Below are positions 10,326 through 47,676 of a stretch of 49,800 bases of DNA, piece by piece. The position numbers and the translations under genes are program-made. Source of the stretch: Candidatus Bipolaricaulota bacterium (lineage in GTDB: Bacteria > Bipolaricaulota > Bipolaricaulia > UBA7950 > UBA9294); the NCBI GenBank assembly GCA_021159105.1, contig JAGGSM010000064.1, positions 1 to 49,800 of the forward strand, in the 5' to 3' direction. The first letter of the stretch is position 1. Every line of letters starts with the position of its first letter. The notes below the pieces were generated by a model, which saw nothing but the letters and a program-made list of their open reading frames with translations, did not search any database and was not told where the DNA came from.

Positions 10326-11480
10326 TTGACTATGGGATTGTTCAGAAGGGAGAAGGAGCCACCACGAGAAGGTGATAAGCAGGAGTACGTGAGTCCTTCT
10401 CAGTGGAAGATGATTTGGCGCGCTTTTCGCAAGCATCGCTTGGGAAACGTGGGTATGGCGATCATACTGGTCCTTATTGTGGGGGCCGTCTTTGCAGAGT
10501 TCTTTGCTCCGTATGACTACAAGGATCAATATAATTCGTACTCGTTTTCTCCCCCATCGACGCTCCACTTTCGCAGTGAGTCGGGCTTCTCTCTCCGCCC
10601 CTTCGTCTACAAGACAAAGCGCACATTTGACCGTGAGACATATCGCCCTGTCTTTACGGAGGATACCAGCAAGAAGTACTACATCAGGCTGTTCGTGCGT
10701 GGTTCAGAGTATCGCTTGCTGGGGCTCTTCAAAACCAACATTCACTTCTTCGGCGCTCGCTCGGAGGATGGCGATGAGGCCATGGTCTTCCTGTTCGGTG
10801 CTGATGCATACGGGCGTGATCTGTTCACGCGCGTTATGATCGGAGGGAGGATCTCTCTTGCTGTTGGTCCGTTCGTCATCCTTCTGGGGTTCCCTATCTC
10901 GATCTTCTTGGGCGGCATCTCCGGTTACTACGGCGGAGGGGTTGACATGTTCCTTCAGCGGTTCGGTGAGGTGTTCATGGCGATCCCCGGCCTGCCGATT
11001 CTGCTGGTCATTGGGGCGGCACTATCTGGATTTGGTCTGTCCGCTGTGCTTGTATTCTTCGGGATAATCGGCGCTTTGACCATCGTCAGTTGGGCGGGAA
11101 TGGCACGTGTTATCAGAGGACAAGTGCTCGCCATCCGCCAGATGGACTTCGTCTCTTCTGCTAAGGCTGCGGGGGCGAGCGATGTGCGCATCATCATTCG
11201 CCACATTGCTCCGAATGTCACCAGTTACCTTGTAGTCGCGGCTACCCTGACGATCCCTGGCATGATGCTCTCGGAGGCTGCCCTTTCGTTCCTCGGTTAT
11301 GGGATCCACGAGCCGATGACAAGTTGGGGGCAGCTGCTCAATGCTGCCACGAACATATCGGGCATTCAGGAGCATCCGTGGCTGTTGATTCCGGGTGTCT
11401 TTATTGTGATATCGGTTCTCGCCTTCAACTTTATGGGTGATGCTCTGCGCGATGCGGTCGATCCGTTTAGCATCGTCTAG
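10326..11480 (+). CDS. ABC transporter permease (DppC/OppC-like)
   Basis: 384 aa multi-TM protein with an EAA-like loop (FVSSAKAAGASDVRIIIRHIAPNV). Start is TTG 10326 or ATG 10332. Confidence 0.88.
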   Translation: MTMGLFRREKEPPREGDKQEYVSPSQWKMIWRAFRKHRLGNVGMAIILVLIVGAVFAEFFAPYDYKDQYNSYSFSPPSTLHFRSESGFSLRPFVYKTKRTFDRETYRPVFTEDTSKKYYIRLFVRGSEYRLLGLFKTNIHFFGARSEDGDEAMVFLFGADAYGRDLFTRVMIGGRISLAVGPFVILLGFPISIFLGGISGYYGGGVDMFLQRFGEVFMAIPGLPILLVIGAALSGFGLSAVLVFFGIIGALTIVSWAGMARVIRGQVLAIRQMDFVSSAKAAGASDVRIIIRHIAPNVTSYLVVAATLTIPGMMLSEAALSFLGYGIHEPMTSWGQLLNAATNISGIQEHPWLLIPGVFIVISVLAFNFMGDALRDAVDPFSIV

Positions 11481-11546
11481 ATCGGGTTAAAGTTGCATCC
11501 TATCTGCTTTTTAGGTAAAATCTGACTTGAGATTTCCTAGAGGCGG

Positions 11547-13955
11547 GTGAGTATGGAACGGATTGAACGTGCCTTCATCGAAGACGAGATGGAGCAGTCG
11601 TACATCAATTACGCGATGAGCGTAATTCGTGGGCGGGCTATCCCCGATGTGCGCGATGGATTGAAGCCGGTGCAGCGGCGTATCCTGTACGGGATGCGCG
11701 AGCTGGGCGTCACCAGTAACAAGGCGCACAAGAAGGCGGCGCGCATCGTCGGTGAGGTGATGGGTAAATTTCACCCGCACGGCGATTCCGCTATCTACGA
11801 CACCATGGTCAACATGGCGCAGCCGTTCTCTTACCGCTATCCCCTCGTCGATGGGCAGGGAAACTTCGGCTCGATCGACGGGGATACCGCTGCGGCGATG
11901 CGTTATACCGAGGCCCGTCTATCTCCGATAGCTTCTGAATTCTTAGAAGAACTTGGAGAAGACACTGTCGATTGGATGCCGAACTTCGACGATTCCCTGC
12001 AGGAACCGATTGTCCTGCCGGCGAAGGTCCCCAACCTGTTGATGAACGGGGCGTGGGGAATCTCCGTGGGGATGACTACCCAGATCCCGCCACATAACCT
12101 CGGGGAGCTGATCGATGGCATTCTCCTGCTGATGGATAACCCGCTGGCGTCGGTCAAGGATCTGATGCAGCATATCCTCGGCCCGGACTTCCCCACCGGC
12201 GGTATCATCATGGGGCGAGGGGGGATCGAGGACATGTACCGCACCGGGCAGGGGAAGGTGACCCTGCGCGGCAAGGCGGAGATCGACGACGATCGGATCA
12301 TCATCAGCGAGATCCCTTACCAGATAAAGAAGTCGACGATCGTGGAATCTATTGCCAACAAGGTGCACAACGGCCAGATCGACGGAATCTCCGATCTGCG
12401 CGATGAGTCGGATCGTGAGGGAATGCGTATCGTCGTCGAGCTGAAGCGGTCGGCCAACCCGAACGTGGTGCTCAACCAGATCTTCAAGTTTACCCCACTG
12501 GAGAAGACGTTTGCTGCCGTCTTTCTGGTGATCATCGATGGGAACCCGCGCACGCTGTCGCTGAAGGAGATCCTGAACTCGTTCATCGACTTTCGCCGCG
12601 AGGTTGTGCGCCGCCGCACAGAGCATCGGCTCAATGTGGCACGCAAGCGAGCCCACATTCTGGAGGGCTACCGGATAGCACTTGCAAACATCGATCGTGT
12701 TGTCAAGATCATCCGCGGGGCGGCAGACACTCCCGCCGCTGCAGAGCAACTGAAGAGTGAGCTTGCTCTGAGCGATGAACAGACCGACGCCATCCTGAAG
12801 ATGCGCTTGTCGCAATTGACGACCCTCGAGGGGAACAAGATCGACGCTGAGTACGAGGAGAAGCTACTGGCCATAGCGGAGTACGAGAAGATACTCGGAA
12901 GCGATCTCCTCCTGGACGAAACGATCAAGAGGGAGCTGCGCGAGATCAGCCAGAAGTACATGAGCGAGAGGCGCACTCTGATCACGGATGAGGATGGGAA
13001 CGTCGATTTCAACAGCCTTATCCCCGATTACGACCTGATGGTATCGATCACCCAGCGCGGATACGTCAACGCACCGCGGGCGATTGAGTTTCACAGTCAG
13101 GGGCGAGGGGGAAAGGGAGTGATCGGGCAGCGCACGAAGGAAGACGACTACGTCCGTATCACCAGCCTGGTAAACGCGCGCGATGAGCTTCTCATCTTCT
13201 CCAATAGGAGGCAGGTCTACCGCACGCAGGGGCATCGCCTCCCGTCGCTCAAGCGGGATGCGGTTGGCAAGAACCTGCGCACGGTCGTCCCCCTGGAGCA
13301 GGATGAGGTGGTGCGTACGATCCTCCCCGTCTCGGACTTCATCGCGGCCGAGGATCGCTTCTGTCTCATGGCGACGGAGAATGGGATCGTCAACCGTAAT
13401 CGGTTGAAGGACTACAAGAACGTACACGCCAGCGGGATCATCGCCATCAACGCTGATGATGACGATCACCTGGTCGACGTCCACCTGACGTACGGTGACG
13501 GTGAGCTGCTCCTCGCCACCATGCACGGGAAGGCGATCCGCTTCCGCGAATCGGATGTCCGCTTGACCAAGCGCCCATCGCGCGGTGTGATCGGGATCCG
13601 CCTGGAAGAGGGGGACCGGGTGATCGGGATTGCTGCGATCGACCGGGATATCACGATGGAGAAGAAGCTGCTCATGGTCACCGAGCGGGGCTACGGAAAG
13701 CGCGTCTCCCTCGTCGACTTTCCGCTGCAGGGGCGGGGTGGAAAGGGAGTGTTGGGCATCAAGATCGACCGCGATTCCGGCCCGCTGGTGTCGATCGGCA
13801 TCGTCTCCGATCAGGACGAGATCATCATCAACACGGAACAGAAGGTGATCCGCATCCTCGCTGGCGACATCAACACCTACGGCCGCTACGCCCGCGGGGT
13901 GAAGTTGATCGACCTGGAGGACGATGACCGCATCGTCTCCGTGGTGCGAACCTAG
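11547..13955 (+). CDS. gyrA: DNA gyrase subunit A
   Basis: 802 aa with [23 protein letters not shown] (catalytic Tyr region) and C-terminal beta-pinwheel repeats. Confidence 0.95.
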
Positions 13956-39486: not shown

Positions 39487-39670
39487 GCATCTACTAAGAG
39501 CAAACCGCCCGAAAGGGCGGGACGCAAAGCTACGGACCTTCTGGACAACGCTCGCAAGGAGCATTGTGTAAAGGGCAAACCGGGAGCGATCCCGGGACGC
39601 AAAGCCACGGGTCTCATTGAGACAGCCGGGTTGCCGCAAGCAGTCTGATGGTGGCCGAGTTGCTGGATGC
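39487..39670 (+). promoter_or_regulatory. c-di-GMP-I (GEMM-I) riboswitch, outer aptamer of a nested tandem, copy 1
   Basis: 5' half GCAAACC-GCCC-GAAA-GGGC-GGGACGCAAAGCUACGGACC (39500-39538). 3' half GAUGGUGGCCGAGUUGCU (39647-39664). Closing helix GCAUCUA/UGGAUGC. Encloses the inner aptamer. Confidence 0.62.
39573..39635 (+). promoter_or_regulatory. c-di-GMP-I (GEMM-I) riboswitch, inner complete aptamer, copy 1
   Basis: GGGCAAACC GGGA-GCGA-UCCC GGGACGCAAAGCC ACGG GUCUC-AUU-GAGAC AGCCGGGUUGCC. Matches the GEMM-I core (GCAAAC, GNRA hairpin, GGACGCAAAGCC, GCCGGGUUnCC) as recalled from Vc2/RF01051. Confidence 0.85.
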
Positions 39671-40499: not shown

Positions 40500-40688
40500 G
40501 CATCTACTAAAAGCAAACCGCCTGAAAGGGTGGGACGCAAAGCTACGGACCTTCTAGACAACGCTCGCAAGGGCATTGTGTACAAGGGCAAACCGGGAGC
40601 GATCCCGGGACGCAAAGCCACGGGCCTCTTGTATCAGAGGCAGCCGGGTTGCCGCAGGCAGTCTAATGGTGGCCGAGTCGCTAGATGC
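40500..40688 (+). promoter_or_regulatory. c-di-GMP-I riboswitch, outer aptamer of nested tandem, copy 2
   Basis: GCAAACC-GCCU-GAAA-GGGU-GGGACGCAAAGCUACGGACC (40513-40551), then AAUGGUGGCCGAGUCGCU (40665-40682). Closing helix GCAUCUA/UAGAUGC is 7 Watson-Crick bp. Confidence 0.62.
40586..40653 (+). promoter_or_regulatory. c-di-GMP-I riboswitch, inner complete aptamer, copy 2
   Basis: GGGCAAACC GGGA-GCGA-UCCC GGGACGCAAAGCC ACGG GCCUCU-UGUAUC-AGAGGC AGCCGGGUUGCC. The distal P3 helix differs from copy 1 but stays complementary. Confidence 0.85.
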
Positions 40689-41447: not shown

Positions 41448-42512
41448 ATGATGCTAAGAGAGATGAGGTCTTCGGGCATTCACCTGATCGTTCTCTTCGT
41501 TATCGTGATCCTCTCGGTCAGCCTCCTGCAGGTCATCGGAGAGGCGGTGGTTATATCGAAGAGCCTCCTGCGCTTTGATGCTCAACCGGGGGCCAATGAG
41601 GAGACCCTGCTTACGGTTGAGAACAACGAGGGAAGCGACATCCGTGTCAGGGTCCGACTCATCGACTGGGATGATACCCCGGATGGGCGAACTCTCCTCT
41701 TTTCTCCGGATACCATTGAACGCTCCTGTTCCTCCTGGATAGAGTATGCTCCGCAGGCGTTCAATCTGCGCCCTGGACAGAAGCAGGAGGTACACGTGAC
41801 GATCCGTGTCCCCTCTTCAGCCGTGGGAACGTACTGGGCGGCTCTGCTCGTTGATAAGCCCGCCCAGCCAGACGCCCCGCCCGAGGGCGGGATTCGCGCC
41901 AAGACCCAGTTCTTGATAAAGATCTATCAGACATCCCTTCCAGCATCAACCACCGGGAAGATAGCAAGCGTTGTTGTCCGTGGGCTGGATCCGCTCTGGG
42001 TGACACTTCAGTTCGCCAACACAGGAGAGACCCTGATGGAGGACGTCAGCGCCACGGCTACTCTGCAGGATCGCACCGGACAGACGCTTGGTGAGCTCTC
42101 ATCTGATCCATTTTCCGTCCTGCCGGGCCACACGGTGGATGTTGCATTGGCAAGTTCACTTTACATGCAGGTTCCGGGAGTGTACCTCGTCACAGCGGTC
42201 GCCGACTATGGGGCCGATTACCTCGTTGCCGGCCAGGTCGCTCTGCGGATAAAGCAACTATCTCTCTCACCGATAGGGGGAAGCCTCAACACTCCAACAG
42301 ACCTCGATGGAGATGGCCTGTATGAAGACATAGACGGCGATGGAAGGCTCACGGAAGCGGACCTGTCTCTGTACACGAGCAACCTCGATGATAGGTGCAT
42401 AACGCGAAACAAACGCGCGTTTGACTATGACAACGACGGCGAGATAACACAGGACGATGTGGGCCTGTTACAGGCAATGCTATCACGCCAACAGGAGCGC
42501 GCCGGAAGGTGA
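41448..42512 (+). CDS. secreted two-Ig-domain, chaperone-like protein (DUF916/DUF3324-like) with C-terminal dockerin-type repeats
   Basis: Signal/TM segment. LLRFDAQPGANEETLLTVENNEGSDIRVRVRLIDW... is followed by a second beta domain. The C-terminus (nt about 42300-42485) has DLDGDGLYEDIDGDGRLTEADLSLY and DYDNDGEITQDDVGLLQAML, a duplicated Ca-binding loop plus helix as in type-I dockerins. Confidence 0.72.
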   Translation: MMLREMRSSGIHLIVLFVIVILSVSLLQVIGEAVVISKSLLRFDAQPGANEETLLTVENNEGSDIRVRVRLIDWDDTPDGRTLLFSPDTIERSCSSWIEYAPQAFNLRPGQKQEVHVTIRVPSSAVGTYWAALLVDKPAQPDAPPEGGIRAKTQFLIKIYQTSLPASTTGKIASVVVRGLDPLWVTLQFANTGETLMEDVSATATLQDRTGQTLGELSSDPFSVLPGHTVDVALASSLYMQVPGVYLVTAVADYGADYLVAGQVALRIKQLSLSPIGGSLNTPTDLDGDGLYEDIDGDGRLTEADLSLYTSNLDDRCITRNKRAFDYDNDGEITQDDVGLLQAMLSRQQERAGR

Positions 42513-42632
42513 CACGCTCGCTGGCTTGCAATCCGCAGTAACATCGACCCAATCACGTCCCACTTCCCGCGCTCACAGAGCTACCACGCCCCTCGAAGGT
42601 GCAGGGTGAGCTGTGGCACGGCCCATCTGTGA

Positions 42633-43958
42633 TCAACCCGGATCATCTTCGCCAGCAGGCTGTATGCTGCTCAGGATATCCTTCAAACTAGGTGCTTCCT
42701 GCCCATTCCAACCGTCAGCTCTGACAGATATGGTGAAGTCAAGGCCCATCTCCGCATTGAGATTGGCCACTTGATCGCTCAGTCGCTTTGAGGCCACCTG
42801 TGCTCCGGCAAGCGGTGTCTCCGGCAGCAGCGCCACGAACCGTTGCTCGCTCACACGAAATACTGGATCAACCGATCGGAGCTTCGCAATGAGGAGGTTC
42901 GCTGTCGCCTGCAGGAGACGTTTCTTATTCTCTTCAGAGGTTCCCTCGCCCGGAGATATGTCTACGATCAGGACCGAAGTTGGATGCCCGTAGCGTGCTC
43001 CCTTCTTCAACTCCTGATCAAGGAGCCTTTGGAAGTAGGAGAACGTGTAAGTGCCCGTCTCTTCGTCGAGCATAACTACGTCCCGCAGTGCCTGTTCGCG
43101 CGATCCGATCACCTTTATCATCAGGTTGAAGACATCGATGAACCGCGCCATCTCGTCACGTACCTTCAGCCCTGCTTGCCTGACCGGCCCAGTCGATACC
43201 TGCACACCGTAGTTCCTCTGTGAGACACTCTCCGCCGCTGCTGCCAGCCTAAGGATCGGCCGGGTGACGATGAGGCTCACGATCCCGTAGATGAGGAAGC
43301 CGAGAACGAGGAATCCGATAACAGATGCCAGCCCAAGCTCTAGTGAGAGGTGATTGACGTAGCGTTGCTGTTCGGCAAGGGACATGTCCACCGAGACTAC
43401 CCCGACCAGATCTGCATCCATGAATAGAGGATAGTCTGCGCGCAGGTATGCTTCTCCCCCTACCCGAACCTGCCTTACCCGCACATCCCGCAGGGCGAGC
43501 AAGGCGCCCTGCGCTTCTTGTGAAAGGATCTTGCCAATCAGTGACGAGTCCGTGCTAGCGACAACTCGCAGCCCCCTGCCGGTCACTCCGCTGACCGTTA
43601 TGCCGACGATAGAGTCGTATCGTGTCATCAGGGTATTGATGTCTTGTTCCAGTTGGTCGGAGTAGTACAGTATATATGCCTTCTCCTGAAGCGACTTGGA
43701 GACGACGCTTGCCACGCTGCGGGCACGCTGCTCGTAGATCCCAGCGATGGTGGTGTGAAGCGATGTGAGCGACAACCAGGCTAGGATGCCGATAACTGAG
43801 AGTGTGATCACGAAGACAGGAACAAGAATCTTGATCTTCAGGGGGGATCGATAGTAGATGTTCGATGACAGGGTCATCAAGCCTCTCTTCAACCGGTGCT
43901 TGATCCTTGCCAGGTATCCCTGCTCTTCCGCTCTCTTGTCCTCAACATTCTCGGACAT
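42633..43958 (-). CDS. membrane sensor protein: extracytoplasmic domain, HAMP, degenerate GGDEF domain with intact RxxD I-site
   Basis: Two TM segments flank a domain of about 150 aa, followed by HAMP-like RPILRLAAAAESVSQ...FIDVFNLMI. The GGDEF position reads SEQRF, and RSVD lies exactly 5 residues upstream (KLRSVDPVFRVSEQRF, nt 42837-42878). DxLT...NRR is replaced by DEETGTYTFSYF. Start at ATG 43956-43958 behind GGAGGG. Confidence 0.8.
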   Translation of the reverse strand: MSENVEDKRAEEQGYLARIKHRLKRGLMTLSSNIYYRSPLKIKILVPVFVITLSVIGILAWLSLTSLHTTIAGIYEQRARSVASVVSKSLQEKAYILYYSDQLEQDINTLMTRYDSIVGITVSGVTGRGLRVVASTDSSLIGKILSQEAQGALLALRDVRVRQVRVGGEAYLRADYPLFMDADLVGVVSVDMSLAEQQRYVNHLSLELGLASVIGFLVLGFLIYGIVSLIVTRPILRLAAAAESVSQRNYGVQVSTGPVRQAGLKVRDEMARFIDVFNLMIKVIGSREQALRDVVMLDEETGTYTFSYFQRLLDQELKKGARYGHPTSVLIVDISPGEGTSEENKKRLLQATANLLIAKLRSVDPVFRVSEQRFVALLPETPLAGAQVASKRLSDQVANLNAEMGLDFTISVRADGWNGQEAPSLKDILSSIQPAGEDDPG

Positions 43959-43972
43959 TGCTACCAACCCTC

Positions 43973-46450
43973 CTATTGAGCCATCAATCCTTGCTGCACC
44001 ATGAACTGCCTGGCAGCCGCCGCTGGATCGCTGTGTAATAACCGTACCCTACTTACCAGGGAATGTACATTATCCGATGTGAGAAGGGGGCGAAGCTCCT
44101 CTTCAATAGCTCGCACTCCAGGGTGTGCATCGATCACGCTCTGGCGCGTGAAGAAGGTTATCTGCCGGGCAGTCAATGCTCCCTGATCATCGTTGAGTGC
44201 CTGGTATCCCACAATCGTAACTGCCTCTTGCAAGCTATGTACAATCGCTGCATCGACTGTCCCCAACTTCAGTGCGGTCTCTGACTCATCGATCCCGTTG
44301 GTCCAGACTACGTTATCCTCTTCGAGTGTTATCCCATATGTCGATGCGAGTGCTGCAACGCTGGCATGAGGGATCTCCCGCTCTACAGCTAGCTTCACGC
44401 TTCTCTGATCACCTGTGAGGTAGATGGCCAGGTTGGAGATTGTCGTTCCAGATAGATGGGTAGCTATCTCCGGGGATACGACAAGCAGGAGCGTATCTTC
44501 TGCTGGAAGAAGGCTGGAGGCGCTTATCCCTGTGTCCGATAGCTCTTTCACATCGAACAGATCGGCCTTCCCAACAGCGACATCGATATCGCCAGCGATG
44601 AGGGCATCCTTCACCTGTTCCTCGCTTTCGAGTCCGATTAGGTCGATCACTCTCATCCCCTCACTCGTTAATCCGAGCTGGAGGAGGCGAGCGATCATGA
44701 CTTGGTCGAGGGAGCTCGTTGCACCGAGGGCAACCGATGCCTTCCAAGACGACCTGGGGAGCACGACCTGGCCTACAATGCGGGAAGGGTCCTCTTCTTC
44801 TGCGCCGTTCCAGTAGTTTCCTTCCGCATAGATTGTCCTATCCGATGAGTTTGATATGTCGTATCTCTTGTTGCCGGAGAAGGAGTTCTTAGCTAGCGTA
44901 AGGGAGAAGCCCTGTTCCGCCCCGGCCAGAAGTTCGGAGTCGCTTCCTCGCAAGATCGTCTCTTGCTTGTCCAGTTTTGAGGAGATCTCCAGCCCAGTGG
45001 AGTTGTATGAGATAGTATTGCCTTCAAGCCTTGTGCCGGTCCCGGACTCGAACAGCCTTAGGGCAATCTCGCTGTGGCTGATGCGGTTGTCCAGAAGTGC
45101 GGTCTGTGATGAAGAGGCGATCAGTACTCCGACCTTGTTGTCCTTGAGAGTGTTGTCTTGAATGTGATTCTTGTCGGCATGATTGAGCAGACACAAGCCC
45201 TGTTCCGAGCTATTGGTCATGCTATTGCGCAGCAGTTGGTTATCGCTTGCTCCAATCAATGCCACTGCGTATGCGCTCCCAGCAGTGACATTGTCGAGGA
45301 GCAGATTCCGCGACCCGGCTGACAAGACAATTCCCGCCAGTGCGTTCTCCTTAAGCGAGTTGCGTAATACCCTATTTCTCGCACCTTCCAGGATCTGGAG
45401 CCCGATCGCGTTCTTCTCCAGGTCATTGGCAAGGATCAGGCTCGACTTAACCCCTTCCAGTGTGAGGGCTGTGCCTTGGCACGTGCTGACGAAGTTGTGC
45501 GTAATGCTGTTATCTTGGCACGCAGAGAGCGAAATCCCATCCCTGAGGCCGTCTTGCACGCTGTTTTCGGATATGGCGTTCTGTGGTGACTTGTACAGTG
45601 AGATCGCGTACTTGGCGCTCCTCCTGATTGAGTTATGCTCTATCCTGTTGTTGGAGGCAGTGTTCAGCAGAATGCCGGTTGCGCAGTCGGTGAACCTGCC
45701 CCCTGTAATGAGGTTCGAAGAGGAACTAAGAATCTCCAGACCGATTTCGCTGCAACTGATCGCGGTAAGCGTGGCGATCTCGTTCTCTTGTGAATCGTCT
45801 TCGATCGAGACTCCGACCCCAACCCCGTCCACGCTGATATCCTCGATCGTGTTGGACCAGGCGGAGGAGAGACGTACGCCAACTGCCGCGTCCTTTCCGA
45901 TGTGGATTTGCTGCAGCCTGTTTCGATTGGCGCTCATCATCTCTATTCCCGTCTTGCATCCGCCGATGACGATCGAGGTGATCACGCTACCGTTGGATTC
46001 GCTCGCCTGTATCCCGACGCGCGCTCCTTCGATAACAAGATCATCAAGACTGGCATTGACTGAGTGCAGCAATTGCACCCCGATGCCGTCTGCTTCGATC
46101 CTGAAACCACGTAACTCGATCCCCGTGGCATGAATTGTCACTGCCGGCTCACCGGTGGGACAGACAATCTTGGCTCGCCCGCCGGACGATATGATCGTTA
46201 CATTTGAAGCATCGATATGAATTGGCCCTTCGTACGGACCGCCTCTCGCTTGAACGACAATCGTCGAACCACCGGCGACTTGATCCAGAGCCGCTTGGAT
46301 CGTCGGGTAGTCCCTCGGCACGACTATCTGTGAAGAAGGAGCAGGTCTACTGACCAAGAAAAACCATGTAAGGGCGCAGGCCGCAAGGACTGCTACTCCT
46401 CCAATTCCCAGCACAAAGTGCCAACTTCCAGGCAGTTTCCTTGACCTCAT
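43973..46450 (-). CDS. membrane-anchored parallel beta-helix (NosD/PbH1-like) repeat protein fused to a C-terminal OpuAC-like solute-binding domain
   Basis: 825 aa with an N-terminal TM segment. About 20 repeats of roughly 22 aa (N..I..N.I....GI.L) span residues about 45-545. The last 255 aa or so (nt 43976 to about 44749) resemble glycine-betaine-type periplasmic binding domains (ALIAGDIDVAVG..., TVDAAIVHS...). Confidence 0.78.
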   Translation of the reverse strand: MRSRKLPGSWHFVLGIGGVAVLAACALTWFFLVSRPAPSSQIVVPRDYPTIQAALDQVAGGSTIVVQARGGPYEGPIHIDASNVTIISSGGRAKIVCPTGEPAVTIHATGIELRGFRIEADGIGVQLLHSVNASLDDLVIEGARVGIQASESNGSVITSIVIGGCKTGIEMMSANRNRLQQIHIGKDAAVGVRLSSAWSNTIEDISVDGVGVGVSIEDDSQENEIATLTAISCSEIGLEILSSSSNLITGGRFTDCATGILLNTASNNRIEHNSIRRSAKYAISLYKSPQNAISENSVQDGLRDGISLSACQDNSITHNFVSTCQGTALTLEGVKSSLILANDLEKNAIGLQILEGARNRVLRNSLKENALAGIVLSAGSRNLLLDNVTAGSAYAVALIGASDNQLLRNSMTNSSEQGLCLLNHADKNHIQDNTLKDNKVGVLIASSSQTALLDNRISHSEIALRLFESGTGTRLEGNTISYNSTGLEISSKLDKQETILRGSDSELLAGAEQGFSLTLAKNSFSGNKRYDISNSSDRTIYAEGNYWNGAEEEDPSRIVGQVVLPRSSWKASVALGATSSLDQVMIARLLQLGLTSEGMRVIDLIGLESEEQVKDALIAGDIDVAVGKADLFDVKELSDTGISASSLLPAEDTLLLVVSPEIATHLSGTTISNLAIYLTGDQRSVKLAVEREIPHASVAALASTYGITLEEDNVVWTNGIDESETALKLGTVDAAIVHSLQEAVTIVGYQALNDDQGALTARQITFFTRQSVIDAHPGVRAIEEELRPLLTSDNVHSLVSRVRLLHSDPAAAARQFMVQQGLMAQ

Positions 46451-46555
46451 GATCAGATGATAGCGATTGGTTACGACAAAGTGAAGGCCTCCCCATCATG
46501 TTCACAGGAGGTAGACGGGGAGGCCGGGAGCGTCAACGACGCATGGTTCTGGTCA

Positions 46556-47116
46556 TTACTTGGGCATCACCGTGTACACAACCTCAAGGCCATAGCTACC
46601 GGGCCGGTAGTCACTTCCGAGCAATATGCGGTGGTCAACACCGATGTCGAAGCTTCCCCGATTCCCACTTGCCAGTATCTGAGGTGTGTTGCTGATTGGG
46701 AAATACTCCCCTCCATGTTCGCGCAGCAGAAAGTCTGAGATTGGCTTTGTGAACGTTCTATCATCGCTCTGTCCCATATCAGTCTCATCTGTCCACACCT
46801 GGACCTTCCACGGGATATTGCTGTTTACGGTGAGGTCGACCGAGTTCATCTCCTCTATGTACCCCCGTTGAAGATCGTAATCTTCTGGCTGGGGCATCAC
46901 ATAATCGGCTGTCACCGAAGGCCCGTGCGTCCCGGAGCCGGCGATTCGCAGTTCTTGATACGGAAGAACGGTCCAGCTCATGTGCACAGTAACGGAGCTC
47001 TGAGTGGCTAACACCAGCCCGACAGCGGACACAGTAGCAATGCAGGCGAGAGCGACCATTGCCCCCCTCCTGTGCCCTTTGATCCACGCCCCGAATCTGG
47101 GAAAAACTCGTTTCAT
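46556..47116 (-). CDS. small secreted beta-sandwich protein, WxL-like/pilin-like (paralog 5)
   Basis: 186 aa from ATG 47114-47116 (AGAGGTG RBS), plus a signal peptide. Motifs are VNSNIPWKVQVW and C-terminal PGSYGLEVVYTVMPK. Confidence 0.7.
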   Translation of the reverse strand: MKRVFPRFGAWIKGHRRGAMVALACIATVSAVGLVLATQSSVTVHMSWTVLPYQELRIAGSGTHGPSVTADYVMPQPEDYDLQRGYIEEMNSVDLTVNSNIPWKVQVWTDETDMGQSDDRTFTKPISDFLLREHGGEYFPISNTPQILASGNRGSFDIGVDHRILLGSDYRPGSYGLEVVYTVMPK

Positions 47117-47215
47117 CATCATCACCTCTAACGCGTAGCCGCATAAACAAGCTACCGATGATACATCTATCATTCTACTGAGAAGCTTCGCTCCTCGCCA
47201 ATCGCTGACAATTAT

Positions 47216-47244
47216 ATTATACCTTGCACGCACATTCTTTAGAC
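47216..47244 (-). promoter_or_regulatory. shared promoter-like motif, copy on minus strand (GTCTAAA-N16-TATAAT)
   Basis: Minus strand reads GTCTAAAGAATGTGCGTGCAAGGTATAATATAATTG. Same 23-nt register as copies 1 and 2. No riboswitch lies between it and the 47116 start. Confidence 0.5.
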
Positions 47245-47379
47245 AACGAGCTTGCGCAAGTCGCCAGACAGTCTTCTCAGGGACCCTAGCCGGTCTATAC
47301 GCGATAGGCGTAAAGGAAAGTGAAACACTGATCTGGTCGGTGATGGGGTGAGATTATTGTGTCTCGTTTCCTCGCGGTC

Positions 47380-47502: not shown

Positions 47503-47676
47503 AGCATTGAAGGGCAACCCGCACGAAAGGGCGGGGCGCAAAGCTACGGCCTGCAAAGGTATGGACGAAAGGGCAAACCGGGAGCGATCCCGGGGCGCAA
47601 AGCCTTGAGTCTTCTTTTATTAGAAGATCGTCAGGCTGCCGTGGCGTACCTAATGGTGGCAGAGCTACAAGATGCT
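47503..47676 (+). promoter_or_regulatory. c-di-GMP-I riboswitch, outer aptamer of nested tandem, copy 3 (divergent)
   Basis: GGGCAACCC-GCAC-GAAA-GGGC-GGGGCGCAAAGCUACGGCC (47511-47551), then AAUGGUGGCAGAGCUAC (47652-47668). Closing helix is AGCAUU/GAUGCU. Confidence 0.55.
47571..47640 (+). promoter_or_regulatory. c-di-GMP-I riboswitch, inner complete aptamer, copy 3
   Basis: GGGCAAACC GGGA-GCGA-UCCC GGGGCGCAAAGCC UUGA GUCUUCU-UUUAUU-AGAAGAU CGUCAGGCUGCC. Confidence 0.8.

Follow-up and report, generated by a model that had tools for sequence, protein, structure and literature searches.

Gene and domain architecture

The stretch of DNA analysed here, hereafter the window, comprises 49,800 nucleotides from a Candidatus Bipolaricaulota bacterium (assembly GCA_021159105.1, contig JAGGSM010000064.1, positions 1 to 49,800). 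On its minus strand lies a gene for a 441-aa membrane protein that ends in a degenerate GGDEF domain (GGDEF*) and is a candidate receptor for c-di-GMP (cyclic dimeric guanosine monophosphate). The open reading frame has two candidate starts, ATG at 43958 and TTG at 43967, and the ATG is likely the true one because a GGAGGG Shine-Dalgarno sequence stands 9 nt before it. This Shine-Dalgarno sequence overlaps the stop codon of an upstream 825-aa gene, whose product is a beta-helix protein fused to a solute-binding protein (SBP) domain, and the two genes are thus tightly coupled, in agreement with the translational adjacency proposed in a sequence-only reading of the window. A scan of 42400-47300 for promoters and terminators returned nothing above shuffle expectation. 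The features of the locus are listed in Table 1.

Table 1. Features of the degenerate GGDEF locus (window coordinates; TM, transmembrane segment; AF2, AlphaFold2)
Feature	Position	Strand	Basis or remark
Gene for degenerate GGDEF protein, 441 aa (stop codon included)	42633..43958	-	TM-sCache-TM-HAMP-GGDEF layout
Shine-Dalgarno GGAGGG	43968..43973	-	Overlaps TAG stop of upstream gene; 9-nt spacer to ATG
TM1, residues ~42-66	43761..43835	-	Hydropathy; helix in AF2 model
Extracytoplasmic sCache-like domain, residues ~67-207	43338..43760	-	Sub-threshold Pfam match, Foldseek, conservation
TM2, residues ~208-232	43263..43337	-	Hydropathy
HAMP-like linker and signalling helix, residues ~233-295	43074..43262	-	Weak Pfam HAMP; model helices 194-246, 269-294
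Degenerate, C-terminally shortened GGDEF domain, residues 296-441	42636..43073	-	Pfam, phmmer, Foldseek, family profile
Predicted I-site RSVD (R361, D364), PVFRV with R368, degenerate signature SEQRF (370-374)	42837..42878	-	Codons, phmmer, homolog counts
Codon of R392, predicted third I-site arginine (PleD R390 equivalent)	42783..42785	-	phmmer, homolog counts
Partner gene, 825 aa: N-terminal TM anchor, NosD-like right-handed beta-helix, OpuAC-type solute-binding domain	43973..46450	-	Pfam
c-di-GMP-I / c-di-GMP-I-GGC aptamers	39489-39545, 39565-39639, 40578-40657, 47563-47644	+	Rfam gathering threshold

The arrangement of two TM segments, an extracytoplasmic domain and a HAMP-like linker before the GGDEF domain, as given in the sequence-only reading, is borne out by hydropathy and Pfam. 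The ectodomain matches sCache_3_2 below threshold (24.2 bits vs a cut-off of 28.4), and the HAMP match is weak in this protein, with PF00672 precomputed for many of its homologs. The cytoplasmic N-terminus before TM1 is basic and poorly conserved. By Foldseek, the ectodomain resembles the extracellular domain of WalK (4ywz_A, TM-score 0.66), and the top full-length match of the protein is a WalK-YycH model (9a5d). The NCBIfam profile HK_WalK likewise matches residues 45-256 (E 3e-7, 29 bits vs a cut-off of 725), and Pfam detects neither HisKA nor HATPase_c in the protein.

Alignment to PF00990, which had been suggested as a check on the assignment, places the C-terminal domain above the Pfam cut-off (33.7 bits vs 23.8, E 3.8e-8; residues 297-403 on profile positions 3-113 of 161), with the catalytic residues lost and the C-terminal quarter of the profile missing. 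TIGR00254 falls just under its own cut-off (34.7 vs 37.4). Built on 37 homologs, the AF2 model reaches a mean predicted local distance difference test score of 80, which rises to 85-92 in the GGDEF part. Foldseek matches of this modelled domain are all to GGDEF domains, including the c-di-GMP-bound GcbC GGDEF (5euh_A, TM-score 0.74, root-mean-square deviation 2.4 A), 3i5b_A (0.71) and 3hva_A (0.69). Because it exceeds the Pfam cut-off and matches the GcbC domain, the modelled domain is a true GGDEF fold.

Loss of the catalytic site and retention of the I-site

The sequence-only reading had identified an RxxD motif five residues before a degenerate signature (RSVD-PVFRV-SEQRF) as an allosteric I-site. 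Reading out the codons on the minus strand places this string at 42878-42837, as claimed, and two alignments agree that RSVD occupies the I-site position. With phmmer, RSVD of the window protein aligns with RAID (R359/D362) of the PleD chains in the PDB, FRV with CRY (R366), SEQRF with GGEEF, and R392 with R390. The family profile places the I-site and signature columns on REVD...GGDEF of 6d9m and on RKSD...GGEEF of DgcR (6zxm). The Arg/Asp pair therefore stands, and only its numbering changes: counted from the ATG, the residues are R361 and D364 rather than R364 and D367. The further claim that the substrate- and metal-binding motifs are lost holds in the main, as DxLTGLxNRR is now LDEETGTYTFSYF and DxDxFK is now VDISPGEG. 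The first Asp is however kept, with D333 aligning with D327, the first Asp of the DxD in PleD. Guanine-binding N335 of PleD falls in an alignment gap, and D344 lies opposite a Lys.

We next consider conservation among 117 homologs (43-100% identity, each 380 aa or longer), nearly all from a single Bipolaricaulota family, which were aligned and counted by residue. RxVD is kept in every one (R361, V363 and D364 each 117/117), as is R392 (117/117), while R368 and F374 are each found in 116/117. None of the 117 has a GG[DE]EF signature; the position is filled by more than 40 distinct xxxRF pentapeptides, in which R373, at the metal-binding Glu site (position 4), is Arg in 115/117. The family consensus ends in ...GWSEExAPxIxxVLxxV..P and lacks the ADxALYxAK..GRN helix that carries the phosphate ligands K442 and R446 of PleD. 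When the set is thinned to 44 sequences below 80% identity, 17/109 core GGDEF* columns remain invariant, and these include the whole I-site triad. An invariant RxVD and R392 next to a signature that varies more than 40 ways argue that the I-site match is more than chance.

Judged by alignment, the cyclase active site is dismantled: GG[DE]EF, the guanine-binding Asn/Asp and the C-terminal Lys/Arg helix have all gone. The same alignments indicate that no member of the family has lost any residue of the complete primary I-site triad (R361, D364, R392). That the protein is still a working diguanylate cyclase of an unusual sort, or a cyclase acting on a different nucleotide, is scarcely credible against this background. 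An acidic residue is found at the PleD D327 position in 109/117 homologs, and PMC3974145 describes AGDEF- and SGDEF-type sites as capable of activity. In this family, however, signature positions 1-3 vary freely and position 4 is an Arg, the guanine-binding residues and the phosphate-binding helix are absent, and the Pfam match stops well short of the end of the profile. We reject an active cyclase on this motif, substrate-site and C-terminal evidence.

Beyond the family, an out-group homolog from a sister family (L026:3300-4595, on G021:C9; 25% identity) shares the TM-sCache-TM-HAMP-GGDEF layout. It reads TDGD...GGAEI at the I-site and signature, with neither RxxD nor the triad, and retains GHxxGD and a C-terminal YKAK. 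Its neighbor is a repeat-rich 399-aa secreted protein, and no beta-helix gene precedes it. Since this out-group is without the triad, the Arg-Asp-Arg set is a specific retained feature of the family rather than a generic structural one. In PelD of Bacillus cereus, mutation has shown that R363, D366 and R395 are required for c-di-GMP binding (PMC7112168).

Gene neighborhood and distribution

Within one Bipolaricaulota family, 40/54 of the genomes sampled encode the protein, which is nearly missing from the rest of the phylum; its homologs are deposited under the names Candidatus Bipolaricaulota and Acetothermia. By coordinate comparison, 41/44 places have the beta-helix/OpuAC gene immediately upstream and on the same strand, the rest being two contig breaks and one gene fragment; it is upstream in loci L013-L015 and L022-L025 as well. 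Five genomes have two copies, and each time the pair is duplicated together. Genomes that lack either gene also lack the other. The linkage between the two genes is obligate.

A third gene completes the cassette in most relatives. A long S8 protease gene lies directly downstream in 34/44 places, as well as in L013, L014, L015, L022 and L023, and encodes a signal peptide, an immunoglobulin-like (Ig-like) N-domain and a catalytic domain with intact Asp/His/Ser. In the lineage of the window, this linked S8 gene is gone and the beta-helix partner alone remains at the locus. The S8 position is instead occupied by a convergent 354-aa dockerin-bearing gene at 41448-42512 (+). Residues 155-276 of the dockerin protein form an Ig-like domain that is common to the N-domain of the relatives' cassette S8 proteases (31% identity, E 3e-15). 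A hidden cassette S8 gene in the window was considered and rejected, as the match at 41913-42272 (+) is only this Ig-like domain. The sole strong S8 match in the genome itself is an unlinked short paralog on another contig (C38, ~11004-12046; L016:1342-2382), which is without the Ig-like N-domain and is cut by the contig end. Unlinked S8 genes of this short type occur in nearly all genomes of the family, cassette-less ones included.

The best conserved part of the candidate receptor is the sCache domain, in which 18/138 columns are invariant. Its identity also exceeds that of the beta-helix partner, at 70% vs 55% within the genus and 46% vs 30% across the family.

c-di-GMP machinery around the candidate receptor gene

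The source assembly (1.85 Mb, 91% complete) encodes four canonical GGDEF domains by profile search, each with RxxD and GGDEF, and six HD_5 (HD-GYP-type) domains. No EAL domain was found in the genome or in the 441-aa protein, and no PilZ domain in the genome. PilZ was likewise found in none of the 61 genomes of the family (0/61), of which 59 have a canonical GGDEF. Within the window, profile searches detect no other GGDEF, no EAL and no HD_5 domain, consistent with the earlier statement that no active cyclase or phosphodiesterase is encoded there. Four of the six HD_5 domains lie within ~12 kb on one contig (C17; L007, L009, L010, L012). A weak, sub-threshold match on C76 (19.6 bits; L006:1471-2400, a 309-aa open reading frame) was considered as a second degenerate GGDEF and set aside, as its motifs FSDIRGFT...GDG read like a class III nucleotidyl cyclase; this assignment is a motif reading only.

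The c-di-GMP aptamers of the window are leaders of small secreted-protein genes on either side of the receptor gene pair, and the leader at 39489-39639 contains two aptamer matches. Rfam also detects c-di-GMP aptamers beside the cassette in L022 and in L013. In the latter, the aptamer lies in the leader of a giant adhesin gene with cadherin/Big_9 repeats (L013:1-4872 (-), >2271 aa), ~2.7 kb upstream of the cassette. At least 12 genomes have a canonical GGDEF gene at a distance of 1-3 kb from the cassette (such as at G101:C22, G109:C86, G063:C14, G024:C16 and G074:C4). This gene sits upstream of the beta-helix gene, giving a four-gene neighborhood of cyclase, beta-helix/SBP, GGDEF* and S8. The nearby cyclase gene at L013:5734-7461 encodes a PAS-GGDEF-EAL protein with intact motifs (RESD...GGDEF).

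This setting bears on whether the domain binds a nucleotide at all. Some degenerate GGDEF proteins, such as GdpS, CsrD and the GGDEF domain of LapD, do not bind c-di-GMP through that domain, and the protein described here could similarly be a pseudoenzyme in which the Arg/Asp/Arg set is structural or makes protein contacts, the whole serving as a membrane adaptor for the beta-helix protein. One cassette-bearing genome without a detected cyclase (G015) would fit such a role. Non-binding degenerate GGDEF domains usually have no RxxD, however. The present family never varies at the three residues that PelD has been proven to need (PMC7112168), the out-group homolog lacks them, and c-di-GMP riboswitches and cyclase genes lie all around the locus. 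We therefore regard a pseudoenzyme without nucleotide binding as improbable.

A probable membrane receptor and its proposed direction of signalling

The best overall explanation, to which we assign a probability of about 0.7, is that this catalytically dead GGDEF protein is a membrane receptor for c-di-GMP that is coupled to extracytoplasmic partners. Its firmest part, which we consider quite probable, is that the dead cyclase binds c-di-GMP at the I-site. This supports the sequence-only reading of a probable receptor instead of a synthase, to which the analysis adds the third I-site arginine and the genome's own cyclases as a source of ligand. In the scheme we propose, c-di-GMP made by the four canonical cyclases of the genome would bind the I-site pocket, probably as an intercalated dimer that links one GGDEF* domain to the other within a receptor dimer. 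The change on binding would be relayed via the HAMP linker and the TM helices to the conserved sCache domain, which would act on the co-translated, membrane-tethered beta-helix/SBP protein and, in most relatives, also on the secreted S8 protease encoded directly downstream. Such a scheme would amount to inside-out signalling of the LapD kind.

The outward direction is a more tentative proposal than the binding, and we place it somewhat short of even odds. We favor it because the cytoplasmic end has just a ligand pocket and no enzymatic output, because no part of the protein is better conserved than the sCache domain, which also exceeds the partner in conservation, and because a secreted protease belongs to the ancestral cassette, a parallel to LapD/LapG. 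An outside-in or coincidence reading is kept alive by the WalK-like module and by the solute-binding domain of the partner. In an outside-in sensor or scaffold, the sCache domain would read an external cue, possibly a ligand that the partner's OpuAC domain presents, with the dead GGDEF domain as the output. This output domain could bring in a cyclase or an HD-GYP enzyme or adjust its activity, or it could retain c-di-GMP locally, and I-site occupancy would be a co-signal. Analogous cases would be binding proteins that dock on sensor kinases, or YycH/YycI on WalK. The HK_WalK match (E 3e-7), the 9a5d and 4ywz structural matches and the canonical GGDEF genes that adjoin the cassette in many genomes would all suit such a sensor. 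Yet the sole conserved functional site of the cytoplasmic part is the ligand pocket, which is neither an enzymatic output nor a known site for docking proteins; conservation of the sCache domain exceeds that of a usual ligand sensor and that of the partner; and a secreted protease in the cassette suits an extracellular output better. For these reasons, we consider the outside-in direction unlikely.

Several observations weigh against the proposed receptor and its outward signalling. The sCache/HAMP module resembles that of WalK, an outside-in sensor, and the predicted TM-score of the AF2 model is just 0.40, such that the domain arrangement is uninformative and the inter-domain geometry unreliable. 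The secondary I-site arginine (PleD R313) is replaced by a lysine, K319, in 114/117 homologs. These homologs come from essentially one bacterial family at 43% identity or more, and the invariance of the triad thus partly reflects limited divergence. G015 (genus g2, 93% complete) has the full cassette and no canonical GGDEF at E<=1e-20, while its congeners have one or two. Finally, the linked long S8 gene is missing in the window, in G039, G146, L024 and L025, and from the second copy wherever the pair is duplicated, and the protease is therefore not a universal output.

Significance

c-di-GMP signalling is almost unstudied in the Bipolaricaulota (OP1/Acetothermia), for which there is no cultured model; the only paper we found that names both the phylum and c-di-GMP is limited to GGDEF phylogeny. 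Genomes of the family encode from one to a dozen cyclases and no PilZ that we could find. The protein described here would be a concrete candidate receptor, as roughly three in four genomes of a single family encode it and its gene is tied to those of envelope proteins. Its gene also lies inside an island of surface-protein genes under c-di-GMP riboswitches, and a single signal may thus act on one cell-surface structure through RNA as well as through protein.

If the inside-out direction is correct, control of enzymes outside the cytoplasm in the manner of LapD would be of independent origin here, with a dead cyclase's I-site and a serine protease as its means, and a circuit of the LapD/LapG type would have been built from entirely different parts. 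A more elaborate proposal makes this protein the chief protein-level sensor of c-di-GMP in a family where no PilZ was found in 61 genomes, signalling inside-out via HAMP and sCache to the beta-helix/SBP protein and, ancestrally, to a secreted subtilisin-type protease that remodels the riboswitch-controlled surface proteins. This composite is speculative, and we doubt that it holds in full.

Comparison with known systems

Receptors that use a degenerate GGDEF domain's I-site are already known (PelD, PopA, CdgG, SgmT and CdgI). In the literature we searched, we found no description of the TM-sCache-TM-HAMP-GGDEF* layout tied to a beta-helix/SBP fusion and a subtilase, and nothing on this architecture with a subtilisin or with inside-out signalling. 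CdgI (YeaI) of Escherichia coli, SgmT, PopA and CdgG combine a degenerate GGDEF with an intact RxxD and bind c-di-GMP, and CdgI further resembles the protein here in its two TM helices and periplasmic domain. We know of no HAMP, beta-helix or S8 context for any of these four, which are likened by description.

PleD, WspR and DgcR share the GGDEF fold, the RxxD five residues before the signature and the third Arg on the next helix. They are active enzymes that are inhibited via the I-site, whereas the protein here appears to have no activity left to inhibit. The TM-sCache-TM-HAMP module finds its best structural and NCBIfam resemblance in WalK, which, with YycH/YycI, also offers the parallel of a membrane-anchored accessory protein. 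Unlike WalK, the protein has no HisKA/HATPase and ends in GGDEF*.

PelD of Pseudomonas aeruginosa and B. cereus is likewise membrane-anchored, has a GGDEF domain without cyclase residues and shares its operon with the envelope proteins that it presumably controls. Its R363/D366/R395 in B. cereus (PMC7112168) and R361/D364/R392 here follow the same pattern of RxxD and a third Arg at equal spacing. PelD differs in having four TM helices, a GAF domain, no periplasmic domain, no HAMP and a pel polysaccharide operon, in contrast to the two TM segments, sCache and HAMP of the present protein and its beta-helix/OpuAC and surface-protein gene neighbors. With no GAF match, no pel genes nearby and no sequence match to the PelD chains, we reject a PelD ortholog.

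LapD passes c-di-GMP binding on via HAMP to its protease-binding output domain in the periplasm (PMC3032553). The protein here is not a member of the LapD family, as it has no EAL, another output fold and another protease: LapD binds c-di-GMP in a degenerate EAL and has a domain-swapped LapD_MoxY_N output domain in place of the sCache/WalK-like one, and LapG is a cysteine protease, while the partner in relatives of our protein is a Peptidase_S8, with none linked in the window. The likeness to LapD/LapG of Pseudomonas fluorescens lies instead in the overall plan. Both proteins order a TM segment, a periplasmic domain, a second TM segment, HAMP and a degenerate GGDEF in what is, or here would be, a catalytically dead receptor, and the relatives of our protein are mostly gene-coupled to a secreted protease and located near large adhesin or surface-protein genes, as in L013.

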